DNA from: an uncultured Planctomycetia bacterium
Lineage (GTDB): Bacteria > Omnitrophota > Gorgyraeia > 1-14-0-20-64-10
Direction of reading: 5' to 3'
DNA: 64,000 bases
Assembly (NCBI GenBank): GCA_964597545.1
Contig: CAZQXN010000002.1
Location: 88,234-152,233, forward strand
Shown here: in pieces, positions 7,538 through 36,475 of the stretch
Layout of the letters: the number at the start of each line of letters is the position of its first letter
Position numbering within the stretch: the first letter of the stretch is position 1
Position numbers and translations under genes: made by a program
The notes under the pieces: model-generated
The model's database searches: none
What the model was told of the DNA's origin: nothing
What the model saw: only the letters and a program-made list of their open reading frames with translations

Positions 7538-7559
7538 GAGACGAAGTTGCGATAAAATA

Positions 7560-11862: not shown

Positions 11863-11891
11863 TAAGCGGAATAATGTTAGGAGGTGTACGA

Positions 11892-19305: not shown

Positions 19306-21378
19306 TTATTTCCAGTGGGAGGACCAGAGCAGCCAGATCCGGGAGTCTTGGGTCCGGACGTGGTCGTTGTCCCGGTCCTTGTCGTAACGGTATTCGCCGT
19401 TGAGCTCCAGGCGCCACTCGTCAAAGACGTCGTAGCCTAAGCTCAAGCGGGTTGCCAGCAGGGGGCGCTGGGCCAGGTCCGAGTCAAAGTCAGCCAGGTG
19501 CAGATAGACCGAAGGGGTGGCCGACCACTTCCGGCGCTTGTCGCGGCTCAGCTTCCGGTAGGGCCAGATGAAGTTGGCCCCGAAGGAGTGGCCCGTGGCA
19601 TGGCGCAGGTTGCTCTCGGTGGCCGGGACCGGGTCGATGAGCTTGCCGTCCTGAAAGGTGTAGTTAAGCCCGGCAGAGGCGTTGGACCAGAGCCTCAAGG
19701 AGCCCGACGCATTGACCTCGTGCTGCAGGCCGTGGTGCCGGGTCTCATTGAACAGCTCATCGAAGAATTCATAGCGGTACCGGGCGGAGAGGAGCGCCCG
19801 CTTGAATAAGGGCAGGGCCAGGCGGGAGCCGACGGTCCAACGGATCTCATCCTCGAAGGCGGTGCCGTTTTCATGCCGTTCCTCTTTGAGAGGGTGCTCC
19901 CACCAGTACGTTCCAAAGGCCGACCACTGCAGGTGCCCCAGATGATGGGCCAACTCTGCCCGCAAGTTGGTGGTGCGCACCTTGGAGGGGCGCGTGGCCG
20001 GACCCGGAGAGGAGGTGGTGTCGGTCATGCTTGCCCTCATGCGCGGTTTTGGCCAGCCGGCGGGCACCTTGATCCCGAGGTCTGCGTGATACCATGCCTG
20101 CCGGGTCTGCTCTACGTTGTCCTCATCGTCCAAGTCGTTGCGGTACCAACTGGCAGCCAAGTCCAGATCAAAGGGTCCCAGCGGCGCGAAATTGAACTTG
20201 TGGTGCGTGAACTGCCGGCCGGCGCTTAAGCCCTTGACGTTGTTGACGGCACCCGAGGGCAGGTCTGCCAGGAGCAGGTAGTCGGGTCCGGTGCGCTCAA
20301 CGACGGCGTCCCACTTGATCCACGGCTGGATGAAGGTGGACTGCACCAGGAAGGCAAGGTCCTTGAGTTTCTCGTTGTTGCCGAAGCGGTCTTCCTTCAA
20401 GTTGTCATCGGTCTCGCTGTAGCTCTCGTATGCCTTGACGAACCAGGTGTCGGGGATGAAGGTGATCTCCTGGTTTAAGTTGTAGACGGTGTTGTCGCGG
20501 CGCTTATTGGCGATGTTGACCGCATGGATTCTCCCGGTGTCCCGCGTCTTGACGACACTGGCCCCCAGCCGCACGCGGTCTTCAATGATCTTCCAGCGGC
20601 TGCGCACCCCCATGACGCTCCTGGGGTAGATGTATTCGTCGCGGTCCTCCAGCCAGTAAGGATACCCTCCGTAGAGGGCCTGGAAGTCATGCCGCTCGCC
20701 GGTCAAGAGCAGGTTGATCCCCCTCAGGCGCGAGCTCCTCAAGAAATAATAGCTGGGGAAGGTGGCGGTATCTCCCAACCCCAGATGGGAAGCGCCCTCG
20801 GCGCCGTATTCACCGGGTTTCTCGAAGAAATCGGCCAGGAGGGTCCGGTAGCGCAGGTCGTTGTGGCCGTTCCTAAAGCCCTCCAGGTCCAGGCGGATGT
20901 GCGCGTCGATGCCGTCGCGGCCCTCCATGAAGGCTTCCAGGCGCTGGTTGATCTGCCAGCCATGGCTGTCAAAATCTTGGTCGGACTGTCTGTCGGCGTC
21001 GCGGCGCTGTCGAAGGACCCTCAGGCGCTCATGGATGTGGTGCTTGCGGCGCAGAGCGCGCTCAATCACAAACTCCCTCTCTTGAGGGTTCTGGACTCCG
21101 GCCATGGCACGCTCCACGTACTCCTGGAAGAGGGACTGGCTTTGAGTTTCTTTGGAGAGCTTGCCCAGCTCAGCCAGCGCCTGCTCGAACCGCCCCCTGC
21201 GCATCATGTGATCCACCCGCGCCAAGAGAAGGGTCTCTTGCGAGGTCAGGGGCTTTGCGTAAGCAGGCGGAAGGTTGAGGGTGAAAGAGGAAAGGAGCAG
21301 CAGGCAGCAGGCAGCAGGCAGCAGGCAGGCAATCGCTCCTGCTTTCTGCTTGCCGCTTTCTGCCTCCCGGATTTTCAC
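19306..21378 (-). CDS. Outer-membrane protein with an N-terminal helical (TPR-like) periplasmic region and a C-terminal beta-barrel (PgaA/BcsC/Slam-like architecture)
   Basis: Likely GTG start at 21378 giving the signal 'VKIREAESGKQKAGAIACLLPAACCLLLLSSFTLNLPPAYA'. Helical region 'ETLLLARVDHMMRRGRFEQALAELGKL'. The C-terminal half is rich in alternating aromatic residues and ends '...RIWLLWSSHWK'. The track start at 21651 overlaps the upstream gene and is rejected. Confidence 0.45.
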   Translation of the reverse strand: MKIREAESGKQKAGAIACLLPAACCLLLLSSFTLNLPPAYAKPLTSQETLLLARVDHMMRRGRFEQALAELGKLSKETQSQSLFQEYVERAMAGVQNPQEREFVIERALRRKHHIHERLRVLRQRRDADRQSDQDFDSHGWQINQRLEAFMEGRDGIDAHIRLDLEGFRNGHNDLRYRTLLADFFEKPGEYGAEGASHLGLGDTATFPSYYFLRSSRLRGINLLLTGERHDFQALYGGYPYWLEDRDEYIYPRSVMGVRSRWKIIEDRVRLGASVVKTRDTGRIHAVNIANKRRDNTVYNLNQEITFIPDTWFVKAYESYSETDDNLKEDRFGNNEKLKDLAFLVQSTFIQPWIKWDAVVERTGPDYLLLADLPSGAVNNVKGLSAGRQFTHHKFNFAPLGPFDLDLAASWYRNDLDDEDNVEQTRQAWYHADLGIKVPAGWPKPRMRASMTDTTSSPGPATRPSKVRTTNLRAELAHHLGHLQWSAFGTYWWEHPLKEERHENGTAFEDEIRWTVGSRLALPLFKRALLSARYRYEFFDELFNETRHHGLQHEVNASGSLRLWSNASAGLNYTFQDGKLIDPVPATESNLRHATGHSFGANFIWPYRKLSRDKRRKWSATPSVYLHLADFDSDLAQRPLLATRLSLGYDVFDEWRLELNGEYRYDKDRDNDHVRTQDSRIWLLWSSHWK
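21296..21330 (-). repeat. Heptanucleotide SSR (gcagcag)x4.5 on the plus strand (ctgctgc on the coding strand) inside the signal-peptide-coding region of the outer-membrane protein gene
   Basis: 'gcagcaggcagcaggcagcaggcagcaggcaggc'. It encodes 'LLPAACCLLLL'. The unit is 7 nt, so a copy-number change would frameshift. Confidence 0.7.
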
Positions 21379-22409
21379 GGGTTCCACAGCTCCACGATCA
21401 GATTGGCCGAGTAAGAGCCCTCCACGGCGGTGGCGCCGGCATCGGTGGCCATGTAGACCGTGAAGGGGCTGTTGAGGGTGAAGTCGCCGGTCACGTTGGC
21501 GTCGGCCACAAAGCGGCTGTCGGTGGAGTCTTGCCCGATGAGCCGCCGCCAACTGACGGGGTCTCCGGTCATGTCCACCAGATCCGGCAGGCGGACCCAG
21601 CTGGCGGTCATGACACTGCGCCTGTCCTCCAAGAGCTCGGGGCCGATCCAATAGTCATCATCGTCCACCGAAGGGGGGCCGGCCAGCTGGCCGTCCCAGC
21701 CGGTATCCTGGATGTCGGGCCCGTAGTTGAGCATCCAGAGCTTCATGGGGATGAAGAAACGTCCATCCAGAGAAACCAGGCCTGCCGGTGAGAGGCGATG
21801 CAGGGCGTCCCGAACACCATGAAAGCGGGCGGCGTTGTCGGTGTAGATGCGCACGACAAAGGGCTGATCGGTTCTGATCCGGTTGAAGCGGTAGAAGCTC
21901 CACCGGATTTCAATCGGGGTCGGATGCATGAATCGGCCCGGGGGTAAGGTGCCGAGGTTGAGCGCTTCCGGGAAGACCCTCAAGCTCTCTGTTTCGGTGC
22001 CGATGTGCAGGGGGTATTCTCCGGAGAGCCGGTCTGAGACATCGCCGTTACCGTCATACAAGGGAAAGGTCACCGTATAGTTGCCGGCCGCTACGACATA
22101 GCTGTCGGTCAGGACCCGGGTTTCACCGGCCGGGATTGTGGCGGTCAAAACCGGGGTCAGGGTGCTCTCGACCTCGGTGTCGATGTTGGTCAGGGTGATG
22201 TCCACCTCGGCGAACTGAGCGGTCGACTCATTGTTTCTGACGGTGACGTCAAAGCGGATCGTGTCGGTCGGATGATGATGTTGGTCATAGGAATAGGAGA
22301 CGATCTCCAGGTCAAACTGGGCCAGGGCCGGCGTTGCCAAGAGTCCGATGCAGAGCGCTGCCGCGAAGATCTCCGGCAAGCGGGAGCAGTATGATCGAAA
22401 CCGGCTCAT
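21375..22409 (-). CDS. Secreted protein (344 aa), paralog of ORF 23275..23976. Candidate fibre/subunit protein.
   Basis: Signal 'MSRFRSYCSRLPEIFAAALCIGLLATPALAQ'. 'RIYTDNAARFHGVRDAL..LVSLDGRFFIPMKL' aligns with 'RCYTDNLAFGGVLGAV..LISEDGRFSIPLEI' in the paralog. The C-termini 'SYSANLIVELWNP' and 'TYDTVLYIEIIAAP' also match. Confidence 0.45.
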   Translation of the reverse strand: MSRFRSYCSRLPEIFAAALCIGLLATPALAQFDLEIVSYSYDQHHHPTDTIRFDVTVRNNESTAQFAEVDITLTNIDTEVESTLTPVLTATIPAGETRVLTDSYVVAAGNYTVTFPLYDGNGDVSDRLSGEYPLHIGTETESLRVFPEALNLGTLPPGRFMHPTPIEIRWSFYRFNRIRTDQPFVVRIYTDNAARFHGVRDALHRLSPAGLVSLDGRFFIPMKLWMLNYGPDIQDTGWDGQLAGPPSVDDDDYWIGPELLEDRRSVMTASWVRLPDLVDMTGDPVSWRRLIGQDSTDSRFVADANVTGDFTLNSPFTVYMATDAGATAVEGSYSANLIVELWNP

Positions 22410-23278
22410 GGCGTCACCACCACGGTTTCCTCCTTGGTCACCTCAAAGACAAGCTCCTTTTGGAGCAGCTGAGCCTGGTCTGCCTCGGCTGTGATGACCG
22501 CCTTGTACTGACCGGCATCGGGCAGGGGCAGCACGGTTGGGATTTGGAGCGCGGCCTTGGGCAGAATCGGCATCGATCTACCCAGGGCGGTCACCCGCAC
22601 GACATTGCCCTCAGCGTCAAAGAGGGCCACCGTCCCGGAGGGGCGGACGTGCACGCTGCCCCGGTTGCGCAGGGTGGTTGTCAGCCACAGCAGGGTGGGG
22701 GCCTCTTCGGAGAACTCGTCAAATTCACCGACCTGTTCTCGGTGTTGAGCGGTGAGCCCCTCGATTGAAAGCTCGATCCGCTGGCGCCCCTCGATCATCA
22801 CATAGACCGGAAGGGCCAAGCGGGGAACGATGGAGATGACGCCCTGGGGGCGGTCTTTCTTGTCTGCGGCCGATTGGATCGGCAGCTCATCCACCAGGAT
22901 GGCGGCGACATACTCGGCGGCGGTGTCGCGCGCAATGTTGGCCGGCGGGGTCACGGTGTAGGTGACCTCTGCGGCGGATTCCGGCGCCAGCGTGAAGTCC
23001 GAAGGTTCAAAGGCAATCCACGCTTCTGCCGAGGGCAGGGTGATCCCCGTTTGCAGAAAGCGGTAAGGTCCGGTCCTGATCCGTGCGTTGACGGCAACAT
23101 CTTTTGAATTGGTGATGGAGAGCGTTCCGGTGACCGGTTGATCCGGGGCGAGGACCACTTCCAGGCGGGCGGGCTCAACATCGAGCGCCCAAGCTGCCGG
23201 GGCGCAGAGGAGCAGGGCAATGCCGCAGGTCCCTGCGGCCATGAGAGAGCACCAGCGGGTCGCAAGAGGTTTTTTCAT
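22406..23278 (-). CDS. Periplasmic PapD-like (pilus-assembly chaperone-like / MSP-fold) candidate
   Basis: Signal 'MKKPLATRWCSLMAAGTCGIALLLCAPAAWA'. 'LEVVLAPDQPVTGTLSITNSKDVAVNARIRT' and 'IAFEPSDFTLAPESAAEVTYTV' resemble the two conserved strands of the PapD N-domain. The gene is overlap-coupled to its neighbours. Confidence 0.35.
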   Translation of the reverse strand: MKKPLATRWCSLMAAGTCGIALLLCAPAAWALDVEPARLEVVLAPDQPVTGTLSITNSKDVAVNARIRTGPYRFLQTGITLPSAEAWIAFEPSDFTLAPESAAEVTYTVTPPANIARDTAAEYVAAILVDELPIQSAADKKDRPQGVISIVPRLALPVYVMIEGRQRIELSIEGLTAQHREQVGEFDEFSEEAPTLLWLTTTLRNRGSVHVRPSGTVALFDAEGNVVRVTALGRSMPILPKAALQIPTVLPLPDAGQYKAVITAEADQAQLLQKELVFEVTKEETVVVTP

Positions 23279-23976
23279 GGGGCCGCGATGATCTCGATGT
23301 AGAGCACGGTGTCGTAGGTCCCCCGGACAGCCGATTCAGAGACATCGGTGCGAAGGATGAGGGGGAAGGGGGTTCCAATCGTGATGTCCCCCAACGGATT
23401 GTCGTCCGAGGTGTAGAGCACCTCATCCGGGCCGGCAACCCAGAGAGTATTCCTGGGATCAATCCCCATGAGGATCACATCGCTGTACTCCGCCTCTTGG
23501 GTTTCGTTATTCAGCCGGTACGGGATGTAGCCGGGCTCATTGATGTCGGGGATTCGCCTGAAGACATTAACACCGAAATTCGGGGATTGGATCTCCAGGG
23601 GGATCGAGAAGCGCCCGTCCTCTGAGATCAGACCCGAGGGGTTGGGCGTCCGGACGGCCCCCAAGACGCCGCCAAAGGCCAAGTTATCGGTGTAGCAGCG
23701 CATGATCCAGGGATAGGGGCCGTTGTAGAGCCCCTCCACGATGATCTCCCCGATCTGCTGGCGGCCCGGCTCTGTGACGGTAAAGCCCACCGCTTCGGTG
23801 AAGGTGTAGCCGCCGAAGGATTCCACCGCGGCGGTGATGTACACCTCCTGCTGAACGGTTGCCTCGGCCTCCTGAGGGCAGGGCCTCAGGCCCCAGGCGC
23901 CCAGCGCGATGCCGGCAATCAACAGGAGTTTCACAATGGGTGCGGGACGGTTCACGATGAATGATTTCATAGCCAT
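23275..23976 (-). CDS. Secreted protein (233 aa), paralog of ORF 21375..22409
   Basis: Signal 'MAMKSFIVNRPAPIVKLLLIAGIALGAWG'. The paralogy was read directly. Its stop overlaps the chaperone-like gene start by 4 nt. Confidence 0.45.
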   Translation of the reverse strand: MAMKSFIVNRPAPIVKLLLIAGIALGAWGLRPCPQEAEATVQQEVYITAAVESFGGYTFTEAVGFTVTEPGRQQIGEIIVEGLYNGPYPWIMRCYTDNLAFGGVLGAVRTPNPSGLISEDGRFSIPLEIQSPNFGVNVFRRIPDINEPGYIPYRLNNETQEAEYSDVILMGIDPRNTLWVAGPDEVLYTSDDNPLGDITIGTPFPLILRTDVSESAVRGTYDTVLYIEIIAAP

Positions 23977-24629
23977 CCTTTCGCCTGCATGGTTTTCTCA
24001 ATGTCCTCAAAGGTTTCAAAGGGAAGGGTGGTAATGCCCTCCTCCTTACACCAACAGCTCAGCTCATCCTTGGCAAAGGTGTGGGTCGCTGCTTTTGCGG
24101 GGCAGCGGTCGGTGACGCCGTTGCCCACGAAGAGGGTGGTATAACCCTGGTTGTTCCAGGTGCGGATGGGGTCGGCCTTGCAGTGCCCGCAGTCGTGGCA
24201 ACTTTGAGACGGATACGGAAACTCCACCTGCCAGGTGCCGTTGACGCGCGCAATCTTATTGGCCAGGTACGGTACCGGCCACAGGCCGGATGCGCGCATG
24301 ACCGCCTCCACGCAGAGATTGAAGCCGCCGCTTAAGAGCACCACCGGAATGCCTTTGGTCTGCATCCGCTTGAAAAAGGCTGGGAAGGCAGGGTCAAGCT
24401 GCACATCTTCCTTGAGCAGCGCCTCAAGCTCTGCTTGGTTTGCGCGAACTGTCGCCATCTCCTGCTTGAGACCCTCCCGAATGGACAGCGCTCCGGAAAC
24501 AACGCGTCCTTGGATCTCTTTCCAGCCTGGTGCCCCGTAGCGGTTTAAGATCTCCACCAGGGTGTCTTGCCGAGTGACCGTTCCATCAAAGTCACAGGCA
24601 ACCAGTATGCCAGATTCCATCCCTGACAT
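23967..24629 (-). CDS. HAD-superfamily phosphatase of the MtnX type (2-hydroxy-3-keto-5-methylthiopentenyl-1-phosphate phosphatase family)
   Basis: 'ILVACDFDGTVT' (DxDGT nucleophile motif), 'LSIREGLK', 'VLLSGGFNLCVEAV', the Cys cluster 'SCHDCGHCKADP' and 'FVGNGVTDRCPAKAATHTFAKDEL' are collinear with B. subtilis MtnX ('ICDFDGTIT', 'LSIKEG', 'ISGGMDFFV', 'HSCKGTC..CGCCK', 'IGDSVTDVEAAK..FARD'). Confidence 0.6.
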   Translation of the reverse strand: MSGMESGILVACDFDGTVTRQDTLVEILNRYGAPGWKEIQGRVVSGALSIREGLKQEMATVRANQAELEALLKEDVQLDPAFPAFFKRMQTKGIPVVLLSGGFNLCVEAVMRASGLWPVPYLANKIARVNGTWQVEFPYPSQSCHDCGHCKADPIRTWNNQGYTTLFVGNGVTDRCPAKAATHTFAKDELSCWCKEEGITTLPFETFEDIEKTMQAKGWL

Positions 24630-24718: not shown

Positions 24719-26974
24719 GTGAAACCTAAATTTCCCTTCCGTTTCGCCAGCCTTCGCTCCTGGGTCCTTCCTTGGATTCTGGGGGCGGTGGGTGCTTTGT
24801 GCCTTGCCCAGCCGATCCAGGCAGCTCGCCAAGAAGTCATAACCCTTAATTTCTGGGAATTGGCGGTCGGCGAGGACCTGATGCGCTCTCTCTTGGACAA
24901 GTTTGAGCGGCAGAATCCCGGCATCCGGGTCCGTTTCCAGCAGCTCTCCTGGGATTATGGGCTGGATAAGATCATTACCGCCGTTGCCGCCGACAACGCG
25001 CCGGATGTTGTGGAGCTGGGGACCGACTGGGTACCGCAGTTTGCCGCCTCCGGGGTGCTGCGAGATCTGACCGAGCCCCTTACCCCCATCAAAGAGCAGT
25101 ATTTCCTCTGGGATCCGGTCACCTACGAGGGAAGGCTCTACGGGATGCCGTGGTTGGCCGGAATCCGGCTCCTCTTTTACAACCGGGAGCTTTTTGCCGA
25201 GGCCGGACTGAATCCGGATCGTCCGCCAACGACCTGGGGAGAGCTCAGCCGCGCTGCCCAGGCGGTGAGCGCCTTAGGGCCGGACATCTACGGCATCGGG
25301 CTCCATGTCGGGGAGGCCTACGCCCCCTGGCAGCAGTTCCTTCCTTTTGTCTGGGGCAACGGCGGCCAGGTCTTAAGTGACGATTGGAGCCGGTGCCTGC
25401 TGGACCAGCCGCCGGCAGTTAACGCCATGCAGTTCTATCATTCCCTCAAGCCCTCTGCCTTGGTAGAGCGCCAGCCCCAGGTCAACCAGCTCTTTGCCGA
25501 GGGCAAGGTGGGAGTTCAGCTCTCAGGCTCCTGGAACTTTGCGGTGATTCCCCGGATGAATCCGACCCTCAACTACGGCGTGGGACTGCTGCCCAGGCCT
25601 GCGCCGCACCGGGGCACCCCTGCCTCTTTTGTGGGGGGCGAAGTTCTCGTCTGCACCAAAAGCTCCCGCCACCCAGAAGCAGCACTCAAACTCATTCGTT
25701 TCCTGGCTGAGCCGGAGCAGGCAATGGCCATTGTGGAGGCCCAGCAGAATATTGTTCCCACAGCCAAGTCGACCATGCGCGATCCCTATTACCAGGCCCA
25801 CCCCGAGCAGAGGCTTTTCTTTGAGCAGGTCCGCTTTGCTGTGGCCCCGCCGGCGCATCCCCGCTGGGTTCGGATGCAGGAGCGGATCACCCGGGCAATC
25901 GAAGAGGTGATCTTCAAGGATGCCGACCCGGCCGAGGTGCTGGGCAGAACCACCGCCGAGATCGACCGGATCTTGGCGCGACCCGAGGTGGAGGACCGGG
26001 TCAGCGATGCCATTGCCTTTGGCACCTTCCTCTTCTTCTTGGCAGGATTGGCCCTGGTGGCCTGGGTGGTGAAGCGCCGCCGGGGGATTCGAGGAAAGGA
26101 GTGGAGCTTGGGGAGCCTGGGGACGAGCGCAGTCTTTATCGGGCCGTGGCTGGCGATCTTCCTGGGATTCAGCTTGATTCCGCTGTTGCACTCTTTTCTG
26201 TTGAGCTTCTCCCGCTACAATCTGCTGACCTCTGAGATCGGTTTTGTGGGGTTGCGCAACTTCACGGAGGTGCTCAGAGAGCCCGAGTTCCTCAAGGCCC
26301 TCTGGCACACCATCTTCTTTGCGATAGGCACCATCCCCCCCACCATGGCGCTGGCCCTCTTTGCGGCGGTTTTGATCAACACCAAGATTCCCTTTAAGCG
26401 CCTCTACCAGGCCGGGATGTTTTTGCCGGTGGCCACCTCGGTGATCGTCATCGCGACCATCTTTACCTATCTCTACGCGCAGGACGGTCTGATCAACCGC
26501 GTTCTGGAGTGGCTGCATCTGCCCAGCCCCTCTCCGGCGTGGCTGCTCAACACGAAGTGGGCGCTGCCGGCGATCATGTTCATGAATGTGTGGGCCAGCT
26601 TCGGCTATTACATGATTCTTTTTTTGGCGGGGCTGCAGACGATCTCCTCCGAGCTCTACGAGGCCGCCTCCATTGACGGAGCCAACGAATGGCAGAAGTT
26701 CTGTTATGTCACCCTGCCGCAGTTAAAACCCATACTTCTCTTGGCGGTGGTCATCAACACCATCCGGGCCCTCCAGGTCTTCCCTGAGATCTTTGCCATG
26801 ACCCAGGGCGGTCCCCTGGGTTCCACCACGACGGTGGTGTACTACCTCTACGAGACCGGGTTCCACCGCTTTGACATGGGCCATGCCGCGGCCGTCGGCT
26901 ACATCCTCTTCTTCATCACGATGGGCTTCTCCTGGCTGCAGATCAGGGCTTTTAAGGTGGAGGAGAACGCCTGA
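24719..26974 (+). CDS. ABC sugar transporter: a family-1 extracellular solute-binding domain (N-terminal ~430 aa) fused in one ORF to a MalF/UgpA-type permease (C-terminal ~320 aa)
   Basis: Signal 'FASLRSWVLPWILGAVGALCLAQPIQA'. SBP-like 'ITLNFWELAVGE...GIRVRFQQLSWDYGLDKI'. Then TM segments and the permease EAA loop 'EAASIDGANEWQKFCYVTLPQLKP'. One continuous 751-aa frame. Confidence 0.7.
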   Translation: MKPKFPFRFASLRSWVLPWILGAVGALCLAQPIQAARQEVITLNFWELAVGEDLMRSLLDKFERQNPGIRVRFQQLSWDYGLDKIITAVAADNAPDVVELGTDWVPQFAASGVLRDLTEPLTPIKEQYFLWDPVTYEGRLYGMPWLAGIRLLFYNRELFAEAGLNPDRPPTTWGELSRAAQAVSALGPDIYGIGLHVGEAYAPWQQFLPFVWGNGGQVLSDDWSRCLLDQPPAVNAMQFYHSLKPSALVERQPQVNQLFAEGKVGVQLSGSWNFAVIPRMNPTLNYGVGLLPRPAPHRGTPASFVGGEVLVCTKSSRHPEAALKLIRFLAEPEQAMAIVEAQQNIVPTAKSTMRDPYYQAHPEQRLFFEQVRFAVAPPAHPRWVRMQERITRAIEEVIFKDADPAEVLGRTTAEIDRILARPEVEDRVSDAIAFGTFLFFLAGLALVAWVVKRRRGIRGKEWSLGSLGTSAVFIGPWLAIFLGFSLIPLLHSFLLSFSRYNLLTSEIGFVGLRNFTEVLREPEFLKALWHTIFFAIGTIPPTMALALFAAVLINTKIPFKRLYQAGMFLPVATSVIVIATIFTYLYAQDGLINRVLEWLHLPSPSPAWLLNTKWALPAIMFMNVWASFGYYMILFLAGLQTISSELYEAASIDGANEWQKFCYVTLPQLKPILLLAVVINTIRALQVFPEIFAMTQGGPLGSTTTVVYYLYETGFHRFDMGHAAAVGYILFFITMGFSWLQIRAFKVEENA

Positions 26975-28266
26975 TGCGCGAGCGGATGCTGATTACCACG
27001 GCGGTCTCGGTGCTGACGGTCATGCTGGTCTTGACCCTCATGCCCCTTTTGATGATGTTCTACACCTCGGTCAAGCCGACCGGCACCCTCTTTGAACGGG
27101 CGCAGGAGGTTCTGGTGGCCGACTTTCAAATCGGAGCCCTCAACTCCATCGGCGGGCCGATTGCCGTCGAAGGGGCCGAGACCTCTGAGATTGAGATGGC
27201 CTTTGTGCCTGCCGTGCCGCAGGCCAGAAGCAATCGGGCGATGGAGATCCGTTTTAATGCCCAGGGGGAGCCGGTGCGCTGGGTCACCCGGGTCGGCCAG
27301 GACATGCGGAAATTCTCCTGGCTGGAGTTCCGGATCAAGGGGGCGGCCGGCGGAGAGAGCTTTACCGTGGATCTGGTGGACCTTAAAGGAAGGCGCACCA
27401 GCCTCGGCATCCAGGAGTTCAAGCGCGGGGGCCTCACCTCCAACTGGGAGACGATCCGCATCCCGATGGAGGCCTTTCACCTGACGCTGCTCACCCCGCG
27501 GCTGGTGGAGCGCCGCGCCCAGGATTTGGCGCTGACCTTCAACCAGGGGGCCGGCACGGTTTACCTGGATGACATCAAGCTCATCTTCAAGGAGTGGACC
27601 CTCAACAACTATTGGGATGTGTTGATCAGCGGTCCCTTTGGCCGCTATGCCGCCAACTCCATGGGGATCTCCCTGGTGGTGACCTTCGGCAACCTCCTTT
27701 TTGCCACCATGGTCGGTTACGCCTTTGCCCGCCGGGACTTTCCCTTTAAGAAGACCCTCTTTTTCATGATCATCGGCTCCATCGCTATCCCTCCGCAGGT
27801 GCTGATGGTGCCGGTCTTTATCCTGATGAAGCACATCGGCTGGCTCAACACCTACTGGGCTTTGACCATCCCGAGCTTGGTCCTGCCCTTCAATGTCTTC
27901 TTCATGCGCCAGTACATCTCCAAATTGCCGACGGCGGTTGAGGAGGCGGCCCGGATTGACGGCGCCAGCGAGTGGCAGATCTTCTGGCGGGTCATCACCC
28001 CCTTGTCTCAGCCGGCGCTGGCGGTGGTGGGGATCAATACCTTTATGGGTTCCTGGAACACCTTTCTCTATCCCTTCCTTTTGACCAATACCGTGGAGAT
28101 GCGCACCCTGCCGGTCGGTCTGGCCCTTTACAAATCCCTCCACGGGGTCGACTGGGTGCATCTGATGGCCGGATCGGCCATTACCGCCATTCCGGTGATC
28201 ATTGCCTTCCTGGTTTTCCAGCGCTACATCATCGAGGGTTTGACGCGAGGTTCGACCGTTGGCTAA
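26974..28266 (+). CDS. ABC transporter permease (MalG/UgpE-type) with a ~115-aa CBM-like beta-sandwich inserted in the first periplasmic loop (~nt 27241-27590)
   Basis: ATGA start overlap. TM1 'LITTAVSVLTVMLVLTLMPLLMM'. Insert 'FRIKGAAGGESFTVDLVD...TSNWETIRIPMEAF...TVYLDDIKLIF' resembles the 'FWVKG..GGE.F..G...TQWQ..IPL..F...LYIDDL' domain of ORFs 7560-12599. EAA loop 'EEAARIDGASEWQIFWRVITPLSQPA'. Confidence 0.65.
   Translation: MRERMLITTAVSVLTVMLVLTLMPLLMMFYTSVKPTGTLFERAQEVLVADFQIGALNSIGGPIAVEGAETSEIEMAFVPAVPQARSNRAMEIRFNAQGEPVRWVTRVGQDMRKFSWLEFRIKGAAGGESFTVDLVDLKGRRTSLGIQEFKRGGLTSNWETIRIPMEAFHLTLLTPRLVERRAQDLALTFNQGAGTVYLDDIKLIFKEWTLNNYWDVLISGPFGRYAANSMGISLVVTFGNLLFATMVGYAFARRDFPFKKTLFFMIIGSIAIPPQVLMVPVFILMKHIGWLNTYWALTIPSLVLPFNVFFMRQYISKLPTAVEEAARIDGASEWQIFWRVITPLSQPALAVVGINTFMGSWNTFLYPFLLTNTVEMRTLPVGLALYKSLHGVDWVHLMAGSAITAIPVIIAFLVFQRYIIEGLTRGSTVG
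27241..27590 (+). other. CBM-like beta-sandwich insert in the periplasmic loop of the MalG-type permease
   Basis: See the CDS 26974..28266 evidence. Confidence 0.5.
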
Positions 28267-28343: not shown

Positions 28344-29546
28344 ATGATGCGTAGGCGGGAGTGGTTTCTAGGCAAGGTGGCCACCCCCCTTGATCTTTTC
28401 GAGCAGGGTGCGGTGGGTATCGAAGGGGACCGGATTTTCTATGTCGGCGAGGCTCAGACCGCACCCAGGAGCCCCCAAGAGCCTGCGCGCACTTTCAACG
28501 GTTGGATCACCCCGGGCATGGTTGACGTCCATGTCCACGGCGGCGGCGGCGGTTCCATCCTGGAAGGAACTCCAGAGGCGGTTATCCAAGCCAGCCGCGC
28601 TTTAGTCGCACACGGGGTCACCAGCTTCCTGGCTACGACCGTCACCGGTGAGGATCTCAGCCGCTGCCGGCACCTTGAGGTGGCCGCTGAGACAGCGCAA
28701 CGCCCACCCGACGATGGGGCAAAGATCCTGGGGATCCATGTCGAGGGGCCCTATGTCAACATGGCTCGCCACAATATGATTCATCCAAGCCGGGTGTGGC
28801 CGCCGGAGCGAAAAAGCTTCGAGGGGCTGCTCAAACTCATGCAGGGAAAGCTCAAGATGATGACCATTGCCCCCGAGCTACCGGGCGCCCTGGATTTGAT
28901 CCAGCACTTGAAGGAGAATGGTGTCGTGGCCTCTCTGGGTCACACCGAGGCAACCCTGGAAGAGGCCCGGGCCGGTTTTGCCGCAGGCATTCAACACGTC
29001 ACTCATCTCTACAACGCCATGCAGGGTCTCAGCCACCGTGAGCCCGGCGCGCTGGGAGCTGTCTTGATGGATCACGCGGTGACCGCGCAGATCATCGCGG
29101 ACGGGGTTCATGTGCACCCGGATCTTTTGCGCTGGACTTGCCGGGTTTTGTCTCCGGAACGCCTGGTCTTGATGACCGATGGCCTGCCCTCCTCAGGGTT
29201 GCCGCAAGGGGAAGGGGAGTATGAGGGGGAGCCTTACACCGTGGTTGATGGTGCTGCTTGGTCCAAAGGGGGGGCGGCCAAGGGCAAGTTGATCGGCACC
29301 ACCTTGGCTCTAGATCAGATGGTTGTGCGTGCCATGCGCTTCATGGGGGTTGATTTCCCTCAGGCGGTCGCCATGGCGTCGCTGTACCCGGCCCGCGCGC
29401 TGGGAATGACACATGAGGTCGGCTCCCTGGCCGCAGGCTGCAAGGCCGACTTGACCCTCTGGAGTGAGGATTATCAACTGCAGGAGACCCTTTTGAGCGG
29501 TAGGACGGTCTGGCAGAGAAAGGAAGCACACTGCAATGTCTCTTGA
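28344..29546 (+). CDS. nagA: N-acetylglucosamine-6-phosphate deacetylase
   Basis: 'GMVDVHVHGGGGGS', 'ILGIHVEGPYVN', 'MTIAPELPGA', 'SLGHTEATLEEARAGFAAGIQHVTHLYNAM', 'REPGALGAVL', 'IADGVHVHPD', 'LMTDG', 'SLYPARALGM'. These are collinear with E. coli NagA. Confidence 0.9.
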   Translation: MMRRREWFLGKVATPLDLFEQGAVGIEGDRIFYVGEAQTAPRSPQEPARTFNGWITPGMVDVHVHGGGGGSILEGTPEAVIQASRALVAHGVTSFLATTVTGEDLSRCRHLEVAAETAQRPPDDGAKILGIHVEGPYVNMARHNMIHPSRVWPPERKSFEGLLKLMQGKLKMMTIAPELPGALDLIQHLKENGVVASLGHTEATLEEARAGFAAGIQHVTHLYNAMQGLSHREPGALGAVLMDHAVTAQIIADGVHVHPDLLRWTCRVLSPERLVLMTDGLPSSGLPQGEGEYEGEPYTVVDGAAWSKGGAAKGKLIGTTLALDQMVVRAMRFMGVDFPQAVAMASLYPARALGMTHEVGSLAAGCKADLTLWSEDYQLQETLLSGRTVWQRKEAHCNVS

Positions 29547-30534
29547 GCTGGGTATCAGCTACTACGGAAACCGTATCCCTTGGCGCGTTCAGGAAGACCT
29601 CAGGGCCATTCAAGAGAGTGGGTGCACCTATGTGCTCCATACCTTCAGCGAAGAGGATGTGGAGTTTTACCAGGGGGCAGTGGCCGAGATTGCGGAGCTG
29701 ACCCGCAAAGCGGGCCTTAAGGTCTGGCTGGATCCCTGGGGGGTAGGGCAGATCTTTGGGGGGGAGACCTACTCCAATCTGATTGCCACCAACTTGTCGG
29801 TCCGGCAGATGAGTTCAGAGGGACAATCCCTTCCGATTGCCTGCATCAACCACCCGGCACTCAAGGAGTATCTCCACCACTGGATTACCGCTGCTGCCCG
29901 CGCAAAACCTGATGTTCTCTTTTGGGATGAGCCGCACTTTAAGATCTACCCCGAGCCTGGGGGGGCACCCCCCAAGACATGGGCCTGCCGCTGTCCCATT
30001 TGTGAGGCCCGATTTAAGAAGCTGACCGGCAGCGCCATGCCCAAGGAGTTTGACCCTCAGGTGCAGGCCTTTAAGGAAGACTCCCTGGTGGAGTTGACCC
30101 GGTGGCTGTGCGATGAGACCCGGGCGCGCGGCATCCGCCCGGCAGTGTGCCTGCTTCCTTTTGAGAACTCCTCTACCGTCAACGATTGGGAAAAAATAGC
30201 TGCCATTGACTCCCTGGAGATCATCGGCACCGACCCCTACTGGAAGCCGCATCAGCCTGAGGTGGACAAGCATGTGGGGCGTTTTTCCAAGCGGATTGCA
30301 GAGCTGGCCCGCCGGCATAAAAAGGAAGGACAGATCTGGATCTTGAACTTCAATATCCCCAAGGGAGAGGAGGGGACGATCCGCACCGCGATTGACGCTG
30401 CCTATCAAGAGGGGATCCGCAACTTCGCCGCCTGGAGCTATTATGGGGCCAGCTACATCCGGCTGCGGGCCGAAGATCCACCGGCAGTTTGGAAAACTCT
30501 GTCGGACTGCTACCACCAACTTAAGAAGCAATAG
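29536..30534 (+). CDS. Hypothetical protein (332 aa), possibly a TIM-barrel glycosidase-like fold. Function unknown.
   Basis: It sits in an operon-like position between nagA and the terminator hairpin. 'GLKVWLDPWGVGQIFGG', 'CRCPICEARF'. I recognise no diagnostic motif. Confidence 0.3.
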   Translation: MSLELGISYYGNRIPWRVQEDLRAIQESGCTYVLHTFSEEDVEFYQGAVAEIAELTRKAGLKVWLDPWGVGQIFGGETYSNLIATNLSVRQMSSEGQSLPIACINHPALKEYLHHWITAAARAKPDVLFWDEPHFKIYPEPGGAPPKTWACRCPICEARFKKLTGSAMPKEFDPQVQAFKEDSLVELTRWLCDETRARGIRPAVCLLPFENSSTVNDWEKIAAIDSLEIIGTDPYWKPHQPEVDKHVGRFSKRIAELARRHKKEGQIWILNFNIPKGEEGTIRTAIDAAYQEGIRNFAAWSYYGASYIRLRAEDPPAVWKTLSDCYHQLKKQ

Positions 30535-32117: not shown

Positions 32118-34568
32118 ATGCAGTACGGACATTTCAGCTCAGATGGGCGCGAATACATCGTAACCCGCCCCAACACCCCCCGCCCATGGTTCAACTACCT
32201 CTTTAACGACGTCTACCACTGTTTGATCTCCCAGACCGGCGGCGGTTTTTCCTATTACCGGGATCCCAAGTACTATCGGGTCCATCGCTACGACCACATC
32301 AGCTCAGACCGACCCGGCCGCTACCTCTTCCTCAAGGATGTGACCAAGGGCTCGGCTGCGAAGGAGCCGATCTGGTCGCTCAACTGGCAGCCGTCCTGCA
32401 AGAAGCTGGACCGCTGGGAAGCGCGGCACGGCCTGGGTTACACCAAAATTTCCTCGACCCACAACGGCATCCAGGGAGAGATCACCTACTTTGTGGCCAA
32501 GGAGGCCCCGGTAGAGCTGTGGCTGGTCTCCTTGAAGAATGCCTCCAAGCGCAAGCGCACCCTCTCGGTCTATCCCTTTGTGGAGTTTGTCAGCGGCGAC
32601 GTGGCCCTGGAAACCCATTACCGGAACATCCTCTGCCTCTACAACGAGGCCGCTTTTGATCCCAAGTCCAAGGCGATTATCTCCTTCAAGCATCCCTTCA
32701 AGAAGGAGCACAAGCCGGGCTTCGCTTTCTTTTCAACCACGCTTCCCGTTGACAGCTGGGAGGCCCACCAGGAGCACTTCCTGGGTCCCTACGGCCACCG
32801 CTCTACTCCGAAGGGGTTGACCCAGACGCGCCTGGGCCGCCATGCCGTGCGCGGCGAGGACATGGTGGGTGTCTTCCAGAGCACCGTGACCTTGAAGCCC
32901 GGAGAGTCCAAGGAGTTCGCCGTGGTCTTAGGAATGACCGAGATGCGGGATGAGATCTCCAAGCACCTCAAGCATTTTCGCTCGGTGGAGCAGGTGCGCC
33001 GGGAGCTCGACTGCGTCCGGGAATACTGGAGAGAATCCTTGGAGTCGATCTGGGTTGACACACCGGACAAGGATTTCAATCTCATGGTCAATCTCTGGGG
33101 GAAATATCAACTCTTTGCCATTACCCACTGGCGGGGCACCTCCCATTACCACGGGGCCGAAGGGGGCCAGGGGTACCGCGACACCTGCCAGGATGTGGAG
33201 GGGCTCTTAAGCCTGGACACTCCCACCTCCCTGGAGAAGCTGGAGCGGCTGCTTTACTATCAGTACAAATCCGGCCATGCGGTCTCGGGGTTCTCCGAGG
33301 TCGAAGGCACTTGGGAGAACACCGGAGCAGCCGGGGTCATCAAGAAGGCAGATGTGGCGGTCTGGCTGCCCTACAGCGTCGTTGCCTACATCAAGGAGAC
33401 CGGGGACACCGATTTCCTTAAGAAAGAGATTCCTTTCCACGACACCGGATCAGCCACCGTCTATGAGCATGTGCTTCGCGCTGTGCGCTACCTCTACAGC
33501 GCCCGCGGCAAGCACGGCCTGCCCCTGATCGGTCACGCCGACTGGAACGATGCCTACGACCATGTGGGCGTCAAGGGCAAGGGTGAGAGCATCTGGCTTG
33601 GGATGGCGCTGGTTCGGGCCTGCAAGCAGGTGGCCGAGCTTGCCGAATTCATCAAGGATGAGAAGGTGGCCCAAGAGATGAAGGAAAAGGCCGAGGCCTT
33701 GACCCGCATTGTCAACCGGGAGGGATGGGAGGATTCCTGGTACCTGGCTGCCTTCAATGACGAAGGCCGAAAGATCGGCTCCAAGCAGAACAAAGAGGGC
33801 AAGGTACCCTTGAACTCCCAAACCTGGGCGATCCTCTCCGGGGTGGTGTCGCAGGAACGGCTGCCCAAGATCCTAGACCGGATTGACCGGACGCTGGGCA
33901 CCCCTTATGGGCCGGCTCTCTTCCTGCCCAGCTATACCGCCTTCAATCCCGGGATCGGGCGGGTGACCGCCTTTGCCGCCGGCACCAAGGAGAATGCAGC
34001 GGTCTTTTCTCATGCCTGCGCTTTCAAGGTGGTGGCTGACTGCACCATTGACCGCGGCGAGCAGGCGTACGACACCTTCGCGAAACTCATGCCCACTTCC
34101 AAGGCCAAACGGGACCACGACCGGTACAAGGTTGAGCCCTTTGTCTGGTCTGAGTATGTGATCGGCCCGGGCTCGGCAGATCGTTTCGGGGAAGGGGCCT
34201 TCACCTGGAACACCGGGACCACCCCCTGGATGTACAACGCCGCCACCGAGTGGATGCTGGGGGCCCGGCGGGAATTCAAGGGCCTCTTGATTGACCCCTG
34301 TTTGCCGAAGCGGTGGAAGTGGGCCAAGATCAAGCGTCCGTTCCGGGGGGCGACCTACGAGATCACCATACGCAATCCCGAAGGGGTGACCTCCGGGGTC
34401 AAGAAGCTTACCGTCGACGGTGTCGAGCAGGAGGATTGCCTGATCGAACCGCACGGAGACGGAGAGACCCATGAGGTTCAAGTGGTTTTAGGTCGCGCAG
34501 GCGGGAAAAACCGCCGCAAGAGGAATACCTCGACAGCTCGACAATCCGGTTTGTACCAAAGGGTCTGA
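32118..34568 (+). CDS. GH94-family glycoside phosphorylase (cellobiose / N,N'-diacetylchitobiose phosphorylase-like)
   Basis: N-terminus 'MQYGHFSSDGREYIVTRPNTPRPWFNYLFNDVYHCLISQTGGGFSYYRDPKYYRVHRY...GRYLFLKD' closely parallels the cellobiose phosphorylase N-terminus ('MRYGHFDD..REYVITTPHTPYPWINYLG...LSHQAGGYSFYRDAK..RLTRY...GRYLYV'). Its ~800-aa length fits. Substrate assignment to chitobiose is only suggested by the nag context. Confidence 0.8.
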   Translation: MQYGHFSSDGREYIVTRPNTPRPWFNYLFNDVYHCLISQTGGGFSYYRDPKYYRVHRYDHISSDRPGRYLFLKDVTKGSAAKEPIWSLNWQPSCKKLDRWEARHGLGYTKISSTHNGIQGEITYFVAKEAPVELWLVSLKNASKRKRTLSVYPFVEFVSGDVALETHYRNILCLYNEAAFDPKSKAIISFKHPFKKEHKPGFAFFSTTLPVDSWEAHQEHFLGPYGHRSTPKGLTQTRLGRHAVRGEDMVGVFQSTVTLKPGESKEFAVVLGMTEMRDEISKHLKHFRSVEQVRRELDCVREYWRESLESIWVDTPDKDFNLMVNLWGKYQLFAITHWRGTSHYHGAEGGQGYRDTCQDVEGLLSLDTPTSLEKLERLLYYQYKSGHAVSGFSEVEGTWENTGAAGVIKKADVAVWLPYSVVAYIKETGDTDFLKKEIPFHDTGSATVYEHVLRAVRYLYSARGKHGLPLIGHADWNDAYDHVGVKGKGESIWLGMALVRACKQVAELAEFIKDEKVAQEMKEKAEALTRIVNREGWEDSWYLAAFNDEGRKIGSKQNKEGKVPLNSQTWAILSGVVSQERLPKILDRIDRTLGTPYGPALFLPSYTAFNPGIGRVTAFAAGTKENAAVFSHACAFKVVADCTIDRGEQAYDTFAKLMPTSKAKRDHDRYKVEPFVWSEYVIGPGSADRFGEGAFTWNTGTTPWMYNAATEWMLGARREFKGLLIDPCLPKRWKWAKIKRPFRGATYEITIRNPEGVTSGVKKLTVDGVEQEDCLIEPHGDGETHEVQVVLGRAGGKNRRKRNTSTARQSGLYQRV

Positions 34569-34687: not shown

Positions 34688-36475
34688 ATGGTTGCTCATC
34701 CCAAACCCATACATCCCCGAGTGGGTTGTAGCCGAGCGGCTGCCGGGCTTGCGCTTCTTCTTGCCGGAGCATCCCTTGCTCTGGCAGCCCCCGAAGAGCC
34801 CCCCGCCACCTTCTGGGAGCGGCACGGCAAGGTTGAGGAAGAAAAACCCGCTTCCACCACCGCCACCGATTACCGCCCCCAGGGCCCGATTGAGCAGATC
34901 CCCTTAACCTTAGCCACCTTACGCATCCCCACCCAGCACGGCTCCTTAAAGCGTGACCATTCCGCACGGGAGCCGATCATCGTTCACATCCAGGATGCCC
35001 ATGCCAACTATGAAGCCCAGAAGCACCTGGCCGCGATCTTAGAGCACCTGATCCTCTCGCATGGCCTCTCCCTGGTTTTGGTGGAGGGGGGTTCCCGCAA
35101 CGACTCTCTTTCCTACATGCGCACCTATGCGCCTTTGCAGAAGCGGCGCGAGGTGGCAGAGGAGTTCTTAAAGGCCGGCAAGATCTCCGGCGAAAATTAC
35201 CTGGATTTGACCAGCGACTACGATTTCACCGTCTACGGCATCGAGCGGCCTGAGCTTTACGACGAGAACATGGAGGCCTTCTTCAATGTGGAGCGGGTCC
35301 AGAAGAGCGCTTTGGCGGCCATCTCAGGGTTCCGAGAGGCGGTCGCCACCCTCAAGACCCAGCTTTACCCCCAAGCGGTGCTGGATCTGGAGGCCAAGGA
35401 GCAGGAGGTCAAGGACGGCCTCATCCCCCTGGCCCACCATTACGAACAGCTTTCCAATGAGGCCAAAGGGGCAGGGGTGAAGGTGGATGAGGAGGAGCTT
35501 CCCAACTTCATGCGCTTCTTGAATGCCAGCCGCCTGGAGCGGGAGATGGACTTCAAGGCCGTGGAGGCGGAGCGGACCAAATTCCTGGAATCGCTCACCC
35601 GAACCTTACCCAAAGCAGAGATGGATTCCCTCCTGGATCAGAGCCTGGAGCTCAAGCGCGGCCTCATCACCCCCGCCTCGTTCTACGGGCACTTAAAGAG
35701 CTATTTCAAGCCCGAGGCGGAGGGGGACTACCCGGTCTTGACCCGCTACATCCGGTACCTGGAGCTTTTCGATGGGATCGACCACGCCGCCCTCTTCACC
35801 GAGGTTGAAACCCTGAGTGACAAGATCAAGATGAGCTACCTGAACAACCGTTCCCAGAAAAAGCTTTTCCAGGTGGCCAAGGATGTGGGGGTATTGGGAG
35901 ACCTGCTGGACCTGAAGCTGACCCCGGATGCCTATGAGTATTACCGCACCCACAAGCGGGAATTCAGGCCCGATCGCTGGGCCGACACCCTTCGGGGCCT
36001 GGGCAGGCGGCAGAAGCCCAAGCTCACCTTTGCCTTGACCCCGGGTCCCTTGAATGCCGCCATGCCGGCGATGTCGAGCTTCTACGAGGTGGCCCGCAAA
36101 AGGGACGAGGCGATGGTCGCCAACGCCTTAAAGCAGATCGAGGCCTTTGAGGTGCCCTTTGCCGTGCTGATCGCCGGAGGTTTCCACACCCCGGCCTTTG
36201 AGCGCCTCTTCAGAAAGAGCAAGGTTTCCTACGCGGTGGTGGCTCCCAAGGTGGGCAAGGTGACCGCCGCCGACACCGAGAAGTACCACCGGGTCTTAAA
36301 GGAGACCTATGTTCCGATGTCAGAGAAGTACCGCAAGAAGATGGGAGTTGCCCCTGTCGCCGCACCCCTGCGCGCTGCGCGTGAGACAGAGCCGATTTCC
36401 GGCGCAGGCGCAGTGACCTCAAGGCCGCCCACATCCTCGGAGGGCGTGGCAGTCGCCTTCGCCCCAGAGGAGTAA
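34688..36475 (+). CDS. Secreted hypothetical protein (595 aa) immediately upstream of the 3089-aa gene
   Basis: Signal 'AAAGLALLLAGASLALAAPEEP'. I recognise no catalytic motif. Confidence 0.35.
   Translation: MVAHPKPIHPRVGCSRAAAGLALLLAGASLALAAPEEPPATFWERHGKVEEEKPASTTATDYRPQGPIEQIPLTLATLRIPTQHGSLKRDHSAREPIIVHIQDAHANYEAQKHLAAILEHLILSHGLSLVLVEGGSRNDSLSYMRTYAPLQKRREVAEEFLKAGKISGENYLDLTSDYDFTVYGIERPELYDENMEAFFNVERVQKSALAAISGFREAVATLKTQLYPQAVLDLEAKEQEVKDGLIPLAHHYEQLSNEAKGAGVKVDEEELPNFMRFLNASRLEREMDFKAVEAERTKFLESLTRTLPKAEMDSLLDQSLELKRGLITPASFYGHLKSYFKPEAEGDYPVLTRYIRYLELFDGIDHAALFTEVETLSDKIKMSYLNNRSQKKLFQVAKDVGVLGDLLDLKLTPDAYEYYRTHKREFRPDRWADTLRGLGRRQKPKLTFALTPGPLNAAMPAMSSFYEVARKRDEAMVANALKQIEAFEVPFAVLIAGGFHTPAFERLFRKSKVSYAVVAPKVGKVTAADTEKYHRVLKETYVPMSEKYRKKMGVAPVAAPLRAARETEPISGAGAVTSRPPTSSEGVAVAFAPEE

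Follow-up and report, generated by a model that had tools for sequence, protein, structure and literature searches.

The textbook ATP-binding cassette (ABC) importer consists of a separate binding protein that recognises the substrate and of permeases that provide only a pore and docking loops. Two adjacent genes at positions 24719-28266 of a 64,000-nucleotide stretch of an uncultured Planctomycetia bacterium of Omnitrophota lineage (contig CAZQXN010000002.1, positions 88,234 to 152,233; the whole stretch is termed the window below) raise the question of whether a sugar importer can be built differently, and what a carbohydrate-binding fold would do inside its membrane subunit. The first gene joins a solute-binding protein (SBP) to a permease with its transmembrane domain (TMD1), and the second encodes another permease (TMD2), the first periplasmic loop (P1) of which holds a beta-sandwich resembling a carbohydrate-binding module (CBM). 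The gene pair is, very probably, a genuine type-I sugar importer of the CUT1 family (TC 3.A.1.1) with exactly this architecture, and it is conserved in Candidatus Omnitrophota. The role of the module admits several answers, which are weighed below with the evidence that bears on each. Coordinates are collected in Table 1.

The 751-amino-acid (aa) open reading frame (ORF) of the first gene had been read in an earlier note, made from the DNA letters, as a family-1 SBP and a permease in one chain, and its Pfam domains and numerous fused relatives confirm this. The SBP half matches SBP_bac_1 over aa 55-335 (6e-46) and SBP_bac_8 (5e-39), shows NCBIfam similarity to GanS/UgpB, and in a phmmer search of the Protein Data Bank (PDB) gives 541 sugar-SBP matches, led by 5ci5 (3e-52) and followed by 3uor and 5ysb; the solved structures nearest to this domain bind diverse sugars. 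The permease half matches BPD_transp_1 (PF00528) over aa 544-737 (2e-16) and is similar in NCBIfam to UgpA, then GlcT, then MalF. The description of this half as MalF-type needs a minor correction, since TMD1 is a six-helix, UgpA/LacF-like core without the two extra N-terminal helices and the P2 domain of MalF. The chain starts with a GTG codon at 24719 and a signal peptide in which a hydrophobic segment (aa 15-33) is preceded by four K/R residues. A 100% identical NCBI protein (P0121) is called as 725 aa, with the signal peptide cut off (24719-24796); the GTG start is preferred because hydrophobic N-terminal leaders are kept in the homologs. Between the two halves a short linker (about 10-15 aa) leads into an additional transmembrane (TM) helix, TM0 (hydropathy 2.32), and the 13-aa loop behind it holds six K/R residues. 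Together, TM0 and this KRRR loop reverse the topology of the chain, from a periplasmic SBP to a permease with a cytoplasmic N-terminus (N-in).

Table 1. Positions in the window of the importer genes, their domains and motifs, and the surrounding genes (AF2, AlphaFold2).
Feature	Position	Strand	Basis
Fusion gene, 751 aa: signal peptide, family-1 SBP, TM0, UgpA/MalF-type permease (TMD1)	24719-26974	+	ORF, Pfam, NCBIfam
Sec-type signal peptide, aa 1-35 (...AQPIQA/ARQ)	24719-24823	+	hydropathy, homolog leaders
Periplasmic solute-binding domain, aa ~36-425	24824-25993	+	Pfam, PDB phmmer, dN/dS
TM0, aa 431-451, and cytoplasmic KRRRGIRGKEW loop	26009-26107	+	hydropathy, homolog alignment
Six-TM permease core of TMD1	26108-26971	+	Pfam, NCBIfam
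EAA loop of TMD1, aa 648-671, motif EAASIDGANEWQKFCYVTLPQLKP	26660-26731	+	motif position
MalG/SugB-type permease (TMD2), 430 aa, CBM-like module in P1 loop	26974-28266	+	ORF, Pfam, NCBIfam, Foldseek
TM1 of TMD2, aa ~11-32	27004-27069	+	hydropathy 2.43; AF2 helix aa 2-32
CBM30/CBM11-like beta-sandwich, aa ~45-205, periplasmic loop P1	27106-27588	+	AF2, Foldseek, profile, BLASTP
Insert motif QDMRKF	27298-27315	+	
Insert motif KGAAGGESF	27337-27363	+	
Insert motif SNWETIRIP	27439-27465	+	
Insert motif VYLDDIKL	27559-27582	+	
TM2-TM6 core of TMD2	27619-28263	+	Pfam, NCBIfam, AF2
EAA loop of TMD2, aa 324-347	27943-28014	+	motif position
Conserved P3 'scoop-loop' region MRTLPVGL	28099-28122	+	conservation
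Four secreted-protein genes, five CBM30-like module copies; one adds CBM9 and an unannotated central domain	7527-12599	+	Pfam CBM30, CBM_11, CBM9_1; BLASTP
Individual paralog genes	7527-10019; 9947-11251 (two copies); 11236-11862; 11874-12599		
NagB-like glucosamine-6-phosphate deaminase	15860-16627	+	Pfam Glucosamine_iso 3.9e-25
HAD-IB (MtnX-like) phosphatase, divergent	23967-24629	-	upstream in 12 related loci
NagA (N-acetylglucosamine-6-phosphate deacetylase), same operon direction	28344-29546	+	TIGR00221 283.9 bits vs cutoff 225.65; syntenic in most loci
U332, conserved 332-aa protein	29536-30534	+	beside transporter in nearly all related loci
ROK-family NagC/Mlc-like regulator, N-terminal winged helix-turn-helix	30718-31920	+	Pfam, NCBIfam; syntenic
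GH94 disaccharide phosphorylase, cellobiose/chitobiose phosphorylase-like	32118-34568	+	Pfam GH94 332 bits; syntenic
U595	34688-36475		

An architecture of this kind might be an artefact, in which a frameshift or an assembly error joined separate genes and the insert of the second permease is a mis-assembled or decaying, functionless remnant. Such a reading could draw on a related Omnitrophota metagenome-assembled genome (MAG; locus L023, 7747-9965), in which the fusion gene is broken into two overlapping ORFs. The break falls, however, within the C-terminal helices of the SBP, so that the L023 split is itself the frameshift; on the same ground, L023 was rejected as an ancestral, unfused pair of SBP and permease. 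A whole-database search returned the same collinear fusion in about 95 independent protein clusters (716-766 aa, 36-100% identity), drawn from NCBI, ENA, JGI and Logan assemblies, and these share the linker, TM0 and the KRRR junction, so the SBP-permease junction is not the product of a frameshift. In an alignment of 26 fused homologs, the signal peptide, the short linker, the hydrophobic TM0, the K/R-rich loop and the first permease helix are all kept, with TM0 present in every one, including those from Riflebacteria. The only purpose of TM0 is to return the chain to the cytoplasmic side, which marks the fusion as a designed feature and not an accident of frameshifting. The insert, for its part, is kept in at least 120 clusters, and in comparison with a 94%-identical ortholog in locus L038 its ratio of non-synonymous to synonymous substitution rates (dN/dS) is 0.18, whereas the permease core gives 0.036 and the SBP 0.059; by this measure the insert is under purifying selection, although more relaxed than that on the core. 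An artefactual origin of the architecture is, with these results, extremely improbable.

The two features also have separate histories. Fused relatives with 36-40% identity occur in Candidatus Riflebacteria/Ozemobacteraceae, where the partner permease is an ordinary protein of 271 aa, and the fusion and the insert must therefore be separate evolutionary events.

The stop codon of TMD1 and the start codon of TMD2 overlap by one base (TGATG), with a GGAGGAG Shine-Dalgarno sequence upstream, which together point to translational coupling of the two permeases. Within TMD2, BPD_transp_1 (PF00528) covers aa 245-419 and the NCBIfam similarity to UgpE, GlcU and MalG begins only at aa ~218. The closest solved structures to the helical core in Foldseek are SugB (8hps_B, E 9.5e-11, 32% identity) and MalG (3rlf_G, E 1.7e-10, 28% identity). 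The sequence MRER stands ahead of TM1, which is followed by a loop of about 200 aa, by TM2 from aa ~225, and by a loop carrying four K/R residues. The position of the EAA loop and this K/R-rich loop behind TM2 give an N-in orientation, which places the 200-aa loop, corresponding to loop P1 of MalG, outside the cytoplasm. The EAA loops of both permeases, the positive-inside rule and the AF2 helices agree on the predicted N-in, six-TM layout; together with hydropathy they predict a periplasmic insert, as had been proposed, and a cytoplasmic location was rejected from the EAA-loop position and positive-inside logic.

In the AF2 model of full-length TMD2 (pLDDT 83), aa 45-205 form an all-beta domain. 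The insert does lie between TM1 and TM2, where the earlier note had placed it, but it is not ~115 aa long; it is a complete module of ~160 aa (aa ~45-205), because its match with secreted paralogs encoded in the same window covers the entire module, from the N-terminal 'LVADF..G..N.IGG' strand through the C-terminal 'VYLDDIKL' strand. Modeled alone, the insert is predicted with high confidence (pLDDT 91.4, pTM 0.87) as an 11-stranded domain, and its ten best Foldseek matches in the PDB are all CBM11 or CBM30 structures (E 1e-9 to 5e-7, TM-scores 0.57-0.68; CBM11 1v0a/6r3m at 1e-9, CBM30 1wzx/2c24 at 1e-7). A profile built from the alignment of permease inserts and secreted paralogs finds the Clostridium thermocellum CBM30 structures (1wmx, 2c24) in the PDB at 1.6e-12 and CBM11 (1v0a) at 1.2e-5. 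The Pfam match with CBM30 (PF21582, aa 114-203) is marginal, its 29.2 bits only just exceeding the gathering cutoff (27). Thus, both a family-model match and the beta-jelly-roll sandwich fold (AF2, Foldseek) connect the insert with CBM30/CBM11, and two conserved tryptophans (aa 73 and aa 158) align with W-containing strands of CBM30. In one respect the module departs from a CBM as CAZy defines it, in that it sits in a loop of a transporter permease rather than being appended to a carbohydrate-active enzyme. When the full TMD2 model was used as the Foldseek query, the beta domain matched CBM11/CBM30 separately from the match of the core to SugB/MalG, and no solved permease covered both.

Kinship of the insert with a cluster of secreted proteins, which had been noticed in the letters, is borne out by BLASTP and by alignment over the whole module, although the cluster begins at 7527 and not at 7560. 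All five upstream module copies match the insert (aa 30-229) with E-values of 2e-10 to 8e-5 and 20-28% identity, and five columns (D110, G126, D136, W158 and P164) are invariant across the permease inserts and the secreted paralogs. In several related loci (L004/L020, L025 and L037) secreted CBM paralogs lie directly beside the transporter. Used as an exhaustive phmmer query, the insert retrieves 284 representative proteins. Of the 150 top-ranking ones, most exceed the permease in length and hold two to seven module copies each, and within this set a permease core is found only in the Omnitrophota permease family; occurrence in multiple copies within large multi-domain proteins matches the habit of CBMs.

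The insert-bearing permease itself forms at least 120 clusters (375-463 aa, 47-94% identity); among those listed, 113 align over 93% of the query or more, three are clear fragments, and every named one is from Candidatus Omnitrophica/Omnitrophota. The nearest permeases from other organisms (Hungatella, Lacrimispora and Oscillospiraceae) lack the insert, as the alignment with them starts only at aa ~206. A scan of species-representative genomes found the gene pair in 21 species-level genomes, all of them Omnitrophota by similarity and synteny, with 13 of the records titled Omnitrophota/Omnitrophica and 8 'uncultured Planctomycetia'. The MAGs of loci L005, L008, L014, L016, L017, L022 and L024 were deposited as 'uncultured Planctomycetia bacterium', a name that is probably a label from automated binning and not a sign of true occurrence in Planctomycetia. 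The fusion gene and the permease gene are neighbours in every Omnitrophota locus, although the short contig L008 resolves this poorly, and the proteins of this transporter are already present in public databases under generic names.

Several features support membership of the CUT1 family: there are two different permeases, each with BPD_transp_1 and an EAA loop, a cognate family-1 (cluster B/D-type) sugar SBP, and a predicted N-in, six-TM organisation with periplasmic loops P1-P3. The expected MalK/MsiK-type ATPase dimer is not encoded in the 64-kb window, nor within 10 kb of the transporter in its relatives. A six-frame regular-expression search of the window for Walker A or LSGGQ motifs was negative, in line with the earlier observation that no ATPase gene is adjacent, and the same type of search in 38 loci found no ABC ATPase motif within 10 kb of the transporter in any Omnitrophota locus. 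Importer operons without an ATPase of their own are common in the CUT1 family (MsiK, MsmX), so this absence does not bar membership. The TMD1-TMD2 pair would then be powered by two ATPase copies whose gene lies at some other place in the genome, following the pattern of Streptomyces MsiK and Bacillus MsmX. Since the SBP is made as part of TMD1, each transporter carries exactly one tethered SBP.

The genes around the transporter suggest what it may import. The usual order in related loci is HAD (minus strand), fusion, permease, NagA, U332, ROK, GH94 and U595, with GH94, NagA, ROK and U332 syntenic with the transporter in most of them, and in L021 and L037 NagB is the gene immediately upstream of the fusion. 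The imported substrate would be a beta-linked di- or oligosaccharide, which the cytoplasmic, co-operonic GH94 phosphorylase would split, the products entering NagA/NagB-type amino-sugar catabolism or glucose catabolism. U332 has no match in Pfam, NCBIfam or the PDB, and it probably supplies a step that the sugar pathway otherwise lacks; its sequence contains a CxCxxC motif.

On this background, the favored explanation of the module is glycan capture, in keeping with the proposal of the earlier note that substrate capture and a CBM would both be tethered to the channel. The CBM-like domain would hold, at the entrance to the transporter, a glycan chain or oligosaccharide fragments derived from it, raising the local concentration of substrate for the tethered SBP, and the loaded SBP would dock on the TMDs for ATP-driven import; the nearby secreted paralogs would probably recognise the same glycan. 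Capture is favored because of the CBM30/CBM11 ancestry of the module, its presence in full in the main clade, and its linkage with the secreted paralogs. We put the probability of this whole explanation, importer and capture together, at roughly 0.45.

Four points weigh against it. The substrate is ambiguous between a cellobiose-like and a chitobiose-like sugar: the GH94 protein is slightly nearer to cellobiose phosphorylase (3qde, 477 bits) than to chitobiose phosphorylase (1v7v, 447 bits) in the PDB, while NagA and NagB point to N-acetylglucosamine (GlcNAc). At the position of Val631 in the Vibrio chitobiose phosphorylase, the GH94 protein of the window (in the part encoded at 33768-34370) has Phe and the C. 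thermocellum cellobiose phosphorylase has Tyr; in the light of the chitobiose phosphorylase structure, the Phe presumably hints at a cellobiose-like +1 site despite NagA and NagB nearby. A complete transporter is also an assumption, since the cognate ATPase was not found in the window or near the transporter in its relatives. Furthermore, the module is not always whole. In short forms of the permease (375-398 aa; 21 of 68 aligned homologs) its N-terminal 45-70 aa are missing, and the L023 permease has a short, degenerate insert from which the GGE motif and the conserved Trp are gone as well, yet all of these retain the permease-specific D-x-RKF motif and the LNPxLPEKxAE loop, a pattern that is easier to reconcile with a protein-protein role than with a sugar cleft. 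Finally, P1 is the very loop that touches the SBP in MalFGK2-E, where MalG P1 and MalF P2 contact MalE's N-lobe over the whole cycle (review PMC6906923).

The last two points lead directly to a different role, in which the P1 beta-sandwich would give the tethered SBP a platform for docking or positioning, an analogue of the Ig-like P2 loop of MalF, by which MalE is held on MalFGK2. The CBM fold would have been recruited as a scaffold that orients the one fused SBP properly above the translocation pore and may transmit the open or closed state of the SBP. TMD1 is without any P2-type domain, and over all variants the most conserved residues of the insert are specific to the permease (D110, R112, K113, F114 and the LNPxLPEKxAE loop), surviving both where about one-third of the module is lost and in L023. 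The long form, on the other hand, holds the full module with every motif common to the secreted paralogs, and the Riflebacteria fusions work with a plain 271-aa partner, so that a tethered SBP needs no such platform. The non-synonymous evolution of the insert, about five times faster than that of the core, suits an exposed ligand-binding module better than an obligate interface, although this is weak evidence. Docking is the main alternative to capture, and a less probable one.

Glycan binding could, alternatively, serve placement and not supply, if the module anchors or localises the transporter through a glycan that belongs either to the bacterium's own envelope (peptidoglycan or a different polymer of the periplasm) or to a host surface. 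Omnitrophota are reported to be ultra-small, and many to have surface adhesins and traits of a predatory or host-dependent life (PMC10066038), while NagA and NagB nearby suit amino-sugar polymers such as peptidoglycan fragments. The nearest characterised relatives of the module, CBM30 and CBM11, bind, however, soluble or amorphous beta-glucan chains (according to PDB titles), and the catabolic phosphorylase of the operon suits nutrient capture; anchoring is quite unlikely.

How far the importer departs from known systems differs between its two genes. The fusion taken by itself, which was first regarded as part of what is unusual here, has a precedent in the maltose/maltodextrin transporter of Bdellovibrio bacteriovorus, in which one chain contains both MalE and MalF (Licht et al. 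2019, Res Microbiol 170:1, as described in PMC6906923). The Bdellovibrio system is likewise of CUT1 type, with a single SBP fused to the first permease and a 1:1 ratio of SBP to transporter; it differs in that its partner MalG is not reported to bear a CBM and in its substrate, maltodextrin rather than the probably beta-linked disaccharide suggested here by the GH94 context. There are no Bdellovibrio records among the 33 confirmed genome loci. Both Bdellovibrio and Omnitrophota are diderm and small, with a predatory or host-dependent lifestyle (for Omnitrophota, PMC10066038). In the present case, the SBD-TMD fusion (SBD, substrate-binding domain) is a single polypeptide with a topology-correcting TM0 and KRRR loop, found in Omnitrophota and Riflebacteria. 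In OpuA and GlnPQ, too, substrate-binding domains are covalently joined to the translocator, and these SBD-TMD fused importers are said to have been treated by van der Heide and Poolman in 2002; they belong, however, to the osmoprotectant and polar-amino-acid families, each complex contains two or four SBDs, and most of them come from Gram-positives. We know of no CBM on any importer of the OpuA/GlnPQ type.

For the CBM in the permease, no precedent was found: neither a publication nor a solved structure that places a CBM fold in a permease loop of an ABC importer came to light in a search that left subscription journals largely outside, and the same search yielded no paper on this Omnitrophota transporter. 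The E. coli MalFGK2-MalE system shares a MalG homologous to TMD2, EAA loops, the conserved P3 'scoop-loop' and a large, beta-rich periplasmic domain on a TMD. In contrast, the extra domain is there Ig-like and located in loop P2 of TMD1, whereas it is here a CBM jelly-roll in loop P1 of TMD2; moreover, the SBP is here covalently tethered, TMD1 has 6+1 TM helices rather than 8, and the operon is without an ATPase. The mycobacterial trehalose importer LpqY-SugABC provides, in SugB, the closest solved TMD2, and its SBP is membrane-tethered as a lipoprotein, but by a lipid anchor and not by polypeptide fusion, and SugB (264-273 aa) has a short P1 loop. The CBM30 (CelJ/Cel9D-Cel44A; 1wmx, 2c24) and CBM11 (Lic26A-Cel5E; 1v0a, 6r3m) modules of C. 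thermocellum have the same fold as the insert and detectable sequence homology, with the common motifs F-x-[VI]-[KR]-G-x-x-G-G-E-x-F and T-x-W-[QE]-x-[VI]-x-I-P and a C-terminal [VI]-D-[DN]-[IL] strand. These modules are, however, appended to secreted cellulases and not inserted in a membrane-protein loop, and the identity is just 15-21%.

The Streptomyces NgcEFG and DasABC systems are CUT1 importers of GlcNAc/chitobiose that resemble the present locus in their surroundings, with operons lacking an ATPase, a shared MsiK, NagA/NagB-type catabolism and ROK/NagC-type regulation. They differ in having a free lipoprotein SBP and plain permeases, and the SBP of the window is not specifically similar to theirs. 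An ABC transporter with its own carbohydrate-binding domain for recognition of a glycan cargo is also known in the O-antigen system Wzm-Wzt (PMC9445017), which is an exporter with a domain of an unrelated family on the cytoplasmic ATPase, as opposed to the periplasmic loop of an importer permease.

Several neighbours of the importer attract attention in their own right. The gene at 7527-10019 is the only secreted paralog with a possible enzyme context: its central domain (aa 276-569), between the CBM30-like module and CBM9, is 26% identical (E 2e-23) to a 331-aa secreted protein encoded at 12607-13602, a homolog of which is the immediate upstream neighbour of the fusion gene in L004/L020. Domain and protein represent a candidate extracellular glycan-active enzyme. 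A DUF4954/GlmU-like hexapeptide-repeat protein (16661-18622) adjoins NagB and also shows synteny in several loci, where it lies upstream of the transporter; DUF4954 recurs within a giant protein in L002. Three consecutive, essentially unannotated signal-peptide proteins of 344, 290 and 233 aa (21375-23976, minus strand) keep their place alongside the HAD phosphatase and the transporter in many Omnitrophota loci; together they may constitute a conserved module, located in the envelope or secreted, that is tied to the transporter.

At the left edge of the window, the products of 8-4141 (1377 aa) and 4229-7537 (1102 aa) have almost no Pfam annotation and share a C-terminal domain of about 183 aa (74% identical), which could be a sorting or anchoring signal; the latter also has a short EPAVPAV tandem repeat. 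Downstream of the operon lie giant ORFs at 36505-45774 (3089 aa), with GlmS-like GATase_6 and SIS domains near the N-terminus of its product, and at 45821-61009 (5062 aa), whose product has no Pfam match in its first 2500 aa. Omnitrophota have been noted for giant ORFs (PMC10066038).

What emerges is a phylum-wide transporter lineage with one SBP hard-wired to TMD1 and a CBM fold in the SBP-docking loop of TMD2. As a compact system of two well-conserved genes, it lends itself to structural work and to reconstitution, and engineered strains might adopt CBM-assisted uptake as a design principle. Were the module to dock the SBP, it would represent an independent, convergent answer to the task of MalF P2, and a natural experiment on how a tethered SBP is coupled to ATP hydrolysis. 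Were it to bind glycan, recognition of a polysaccharide would be integrated in the transporter itself, as a Gram-negative inner-membrane counterpart to the Sus/TonB logic, and would offer a handle on the diet of uncultured Omnitrophota. A functional CBM and a tethered SBP could even make up a self-contained machine for capture, hand-over and import, in which the secreted CBM30/CBM9 proteins release a glycan from a polymer or host surface and the glycan is held at the channel mouth and passed to the SBP. Such a machine, which is put forward tentatively and is on balance improbable in this full form, would be the first ABC importer whose membrane subunit recognises polysaccharide, and it could suit ultra-small, possibly host-dependent Omnitrophota, with a periplasm too small for a free pool of SBP.

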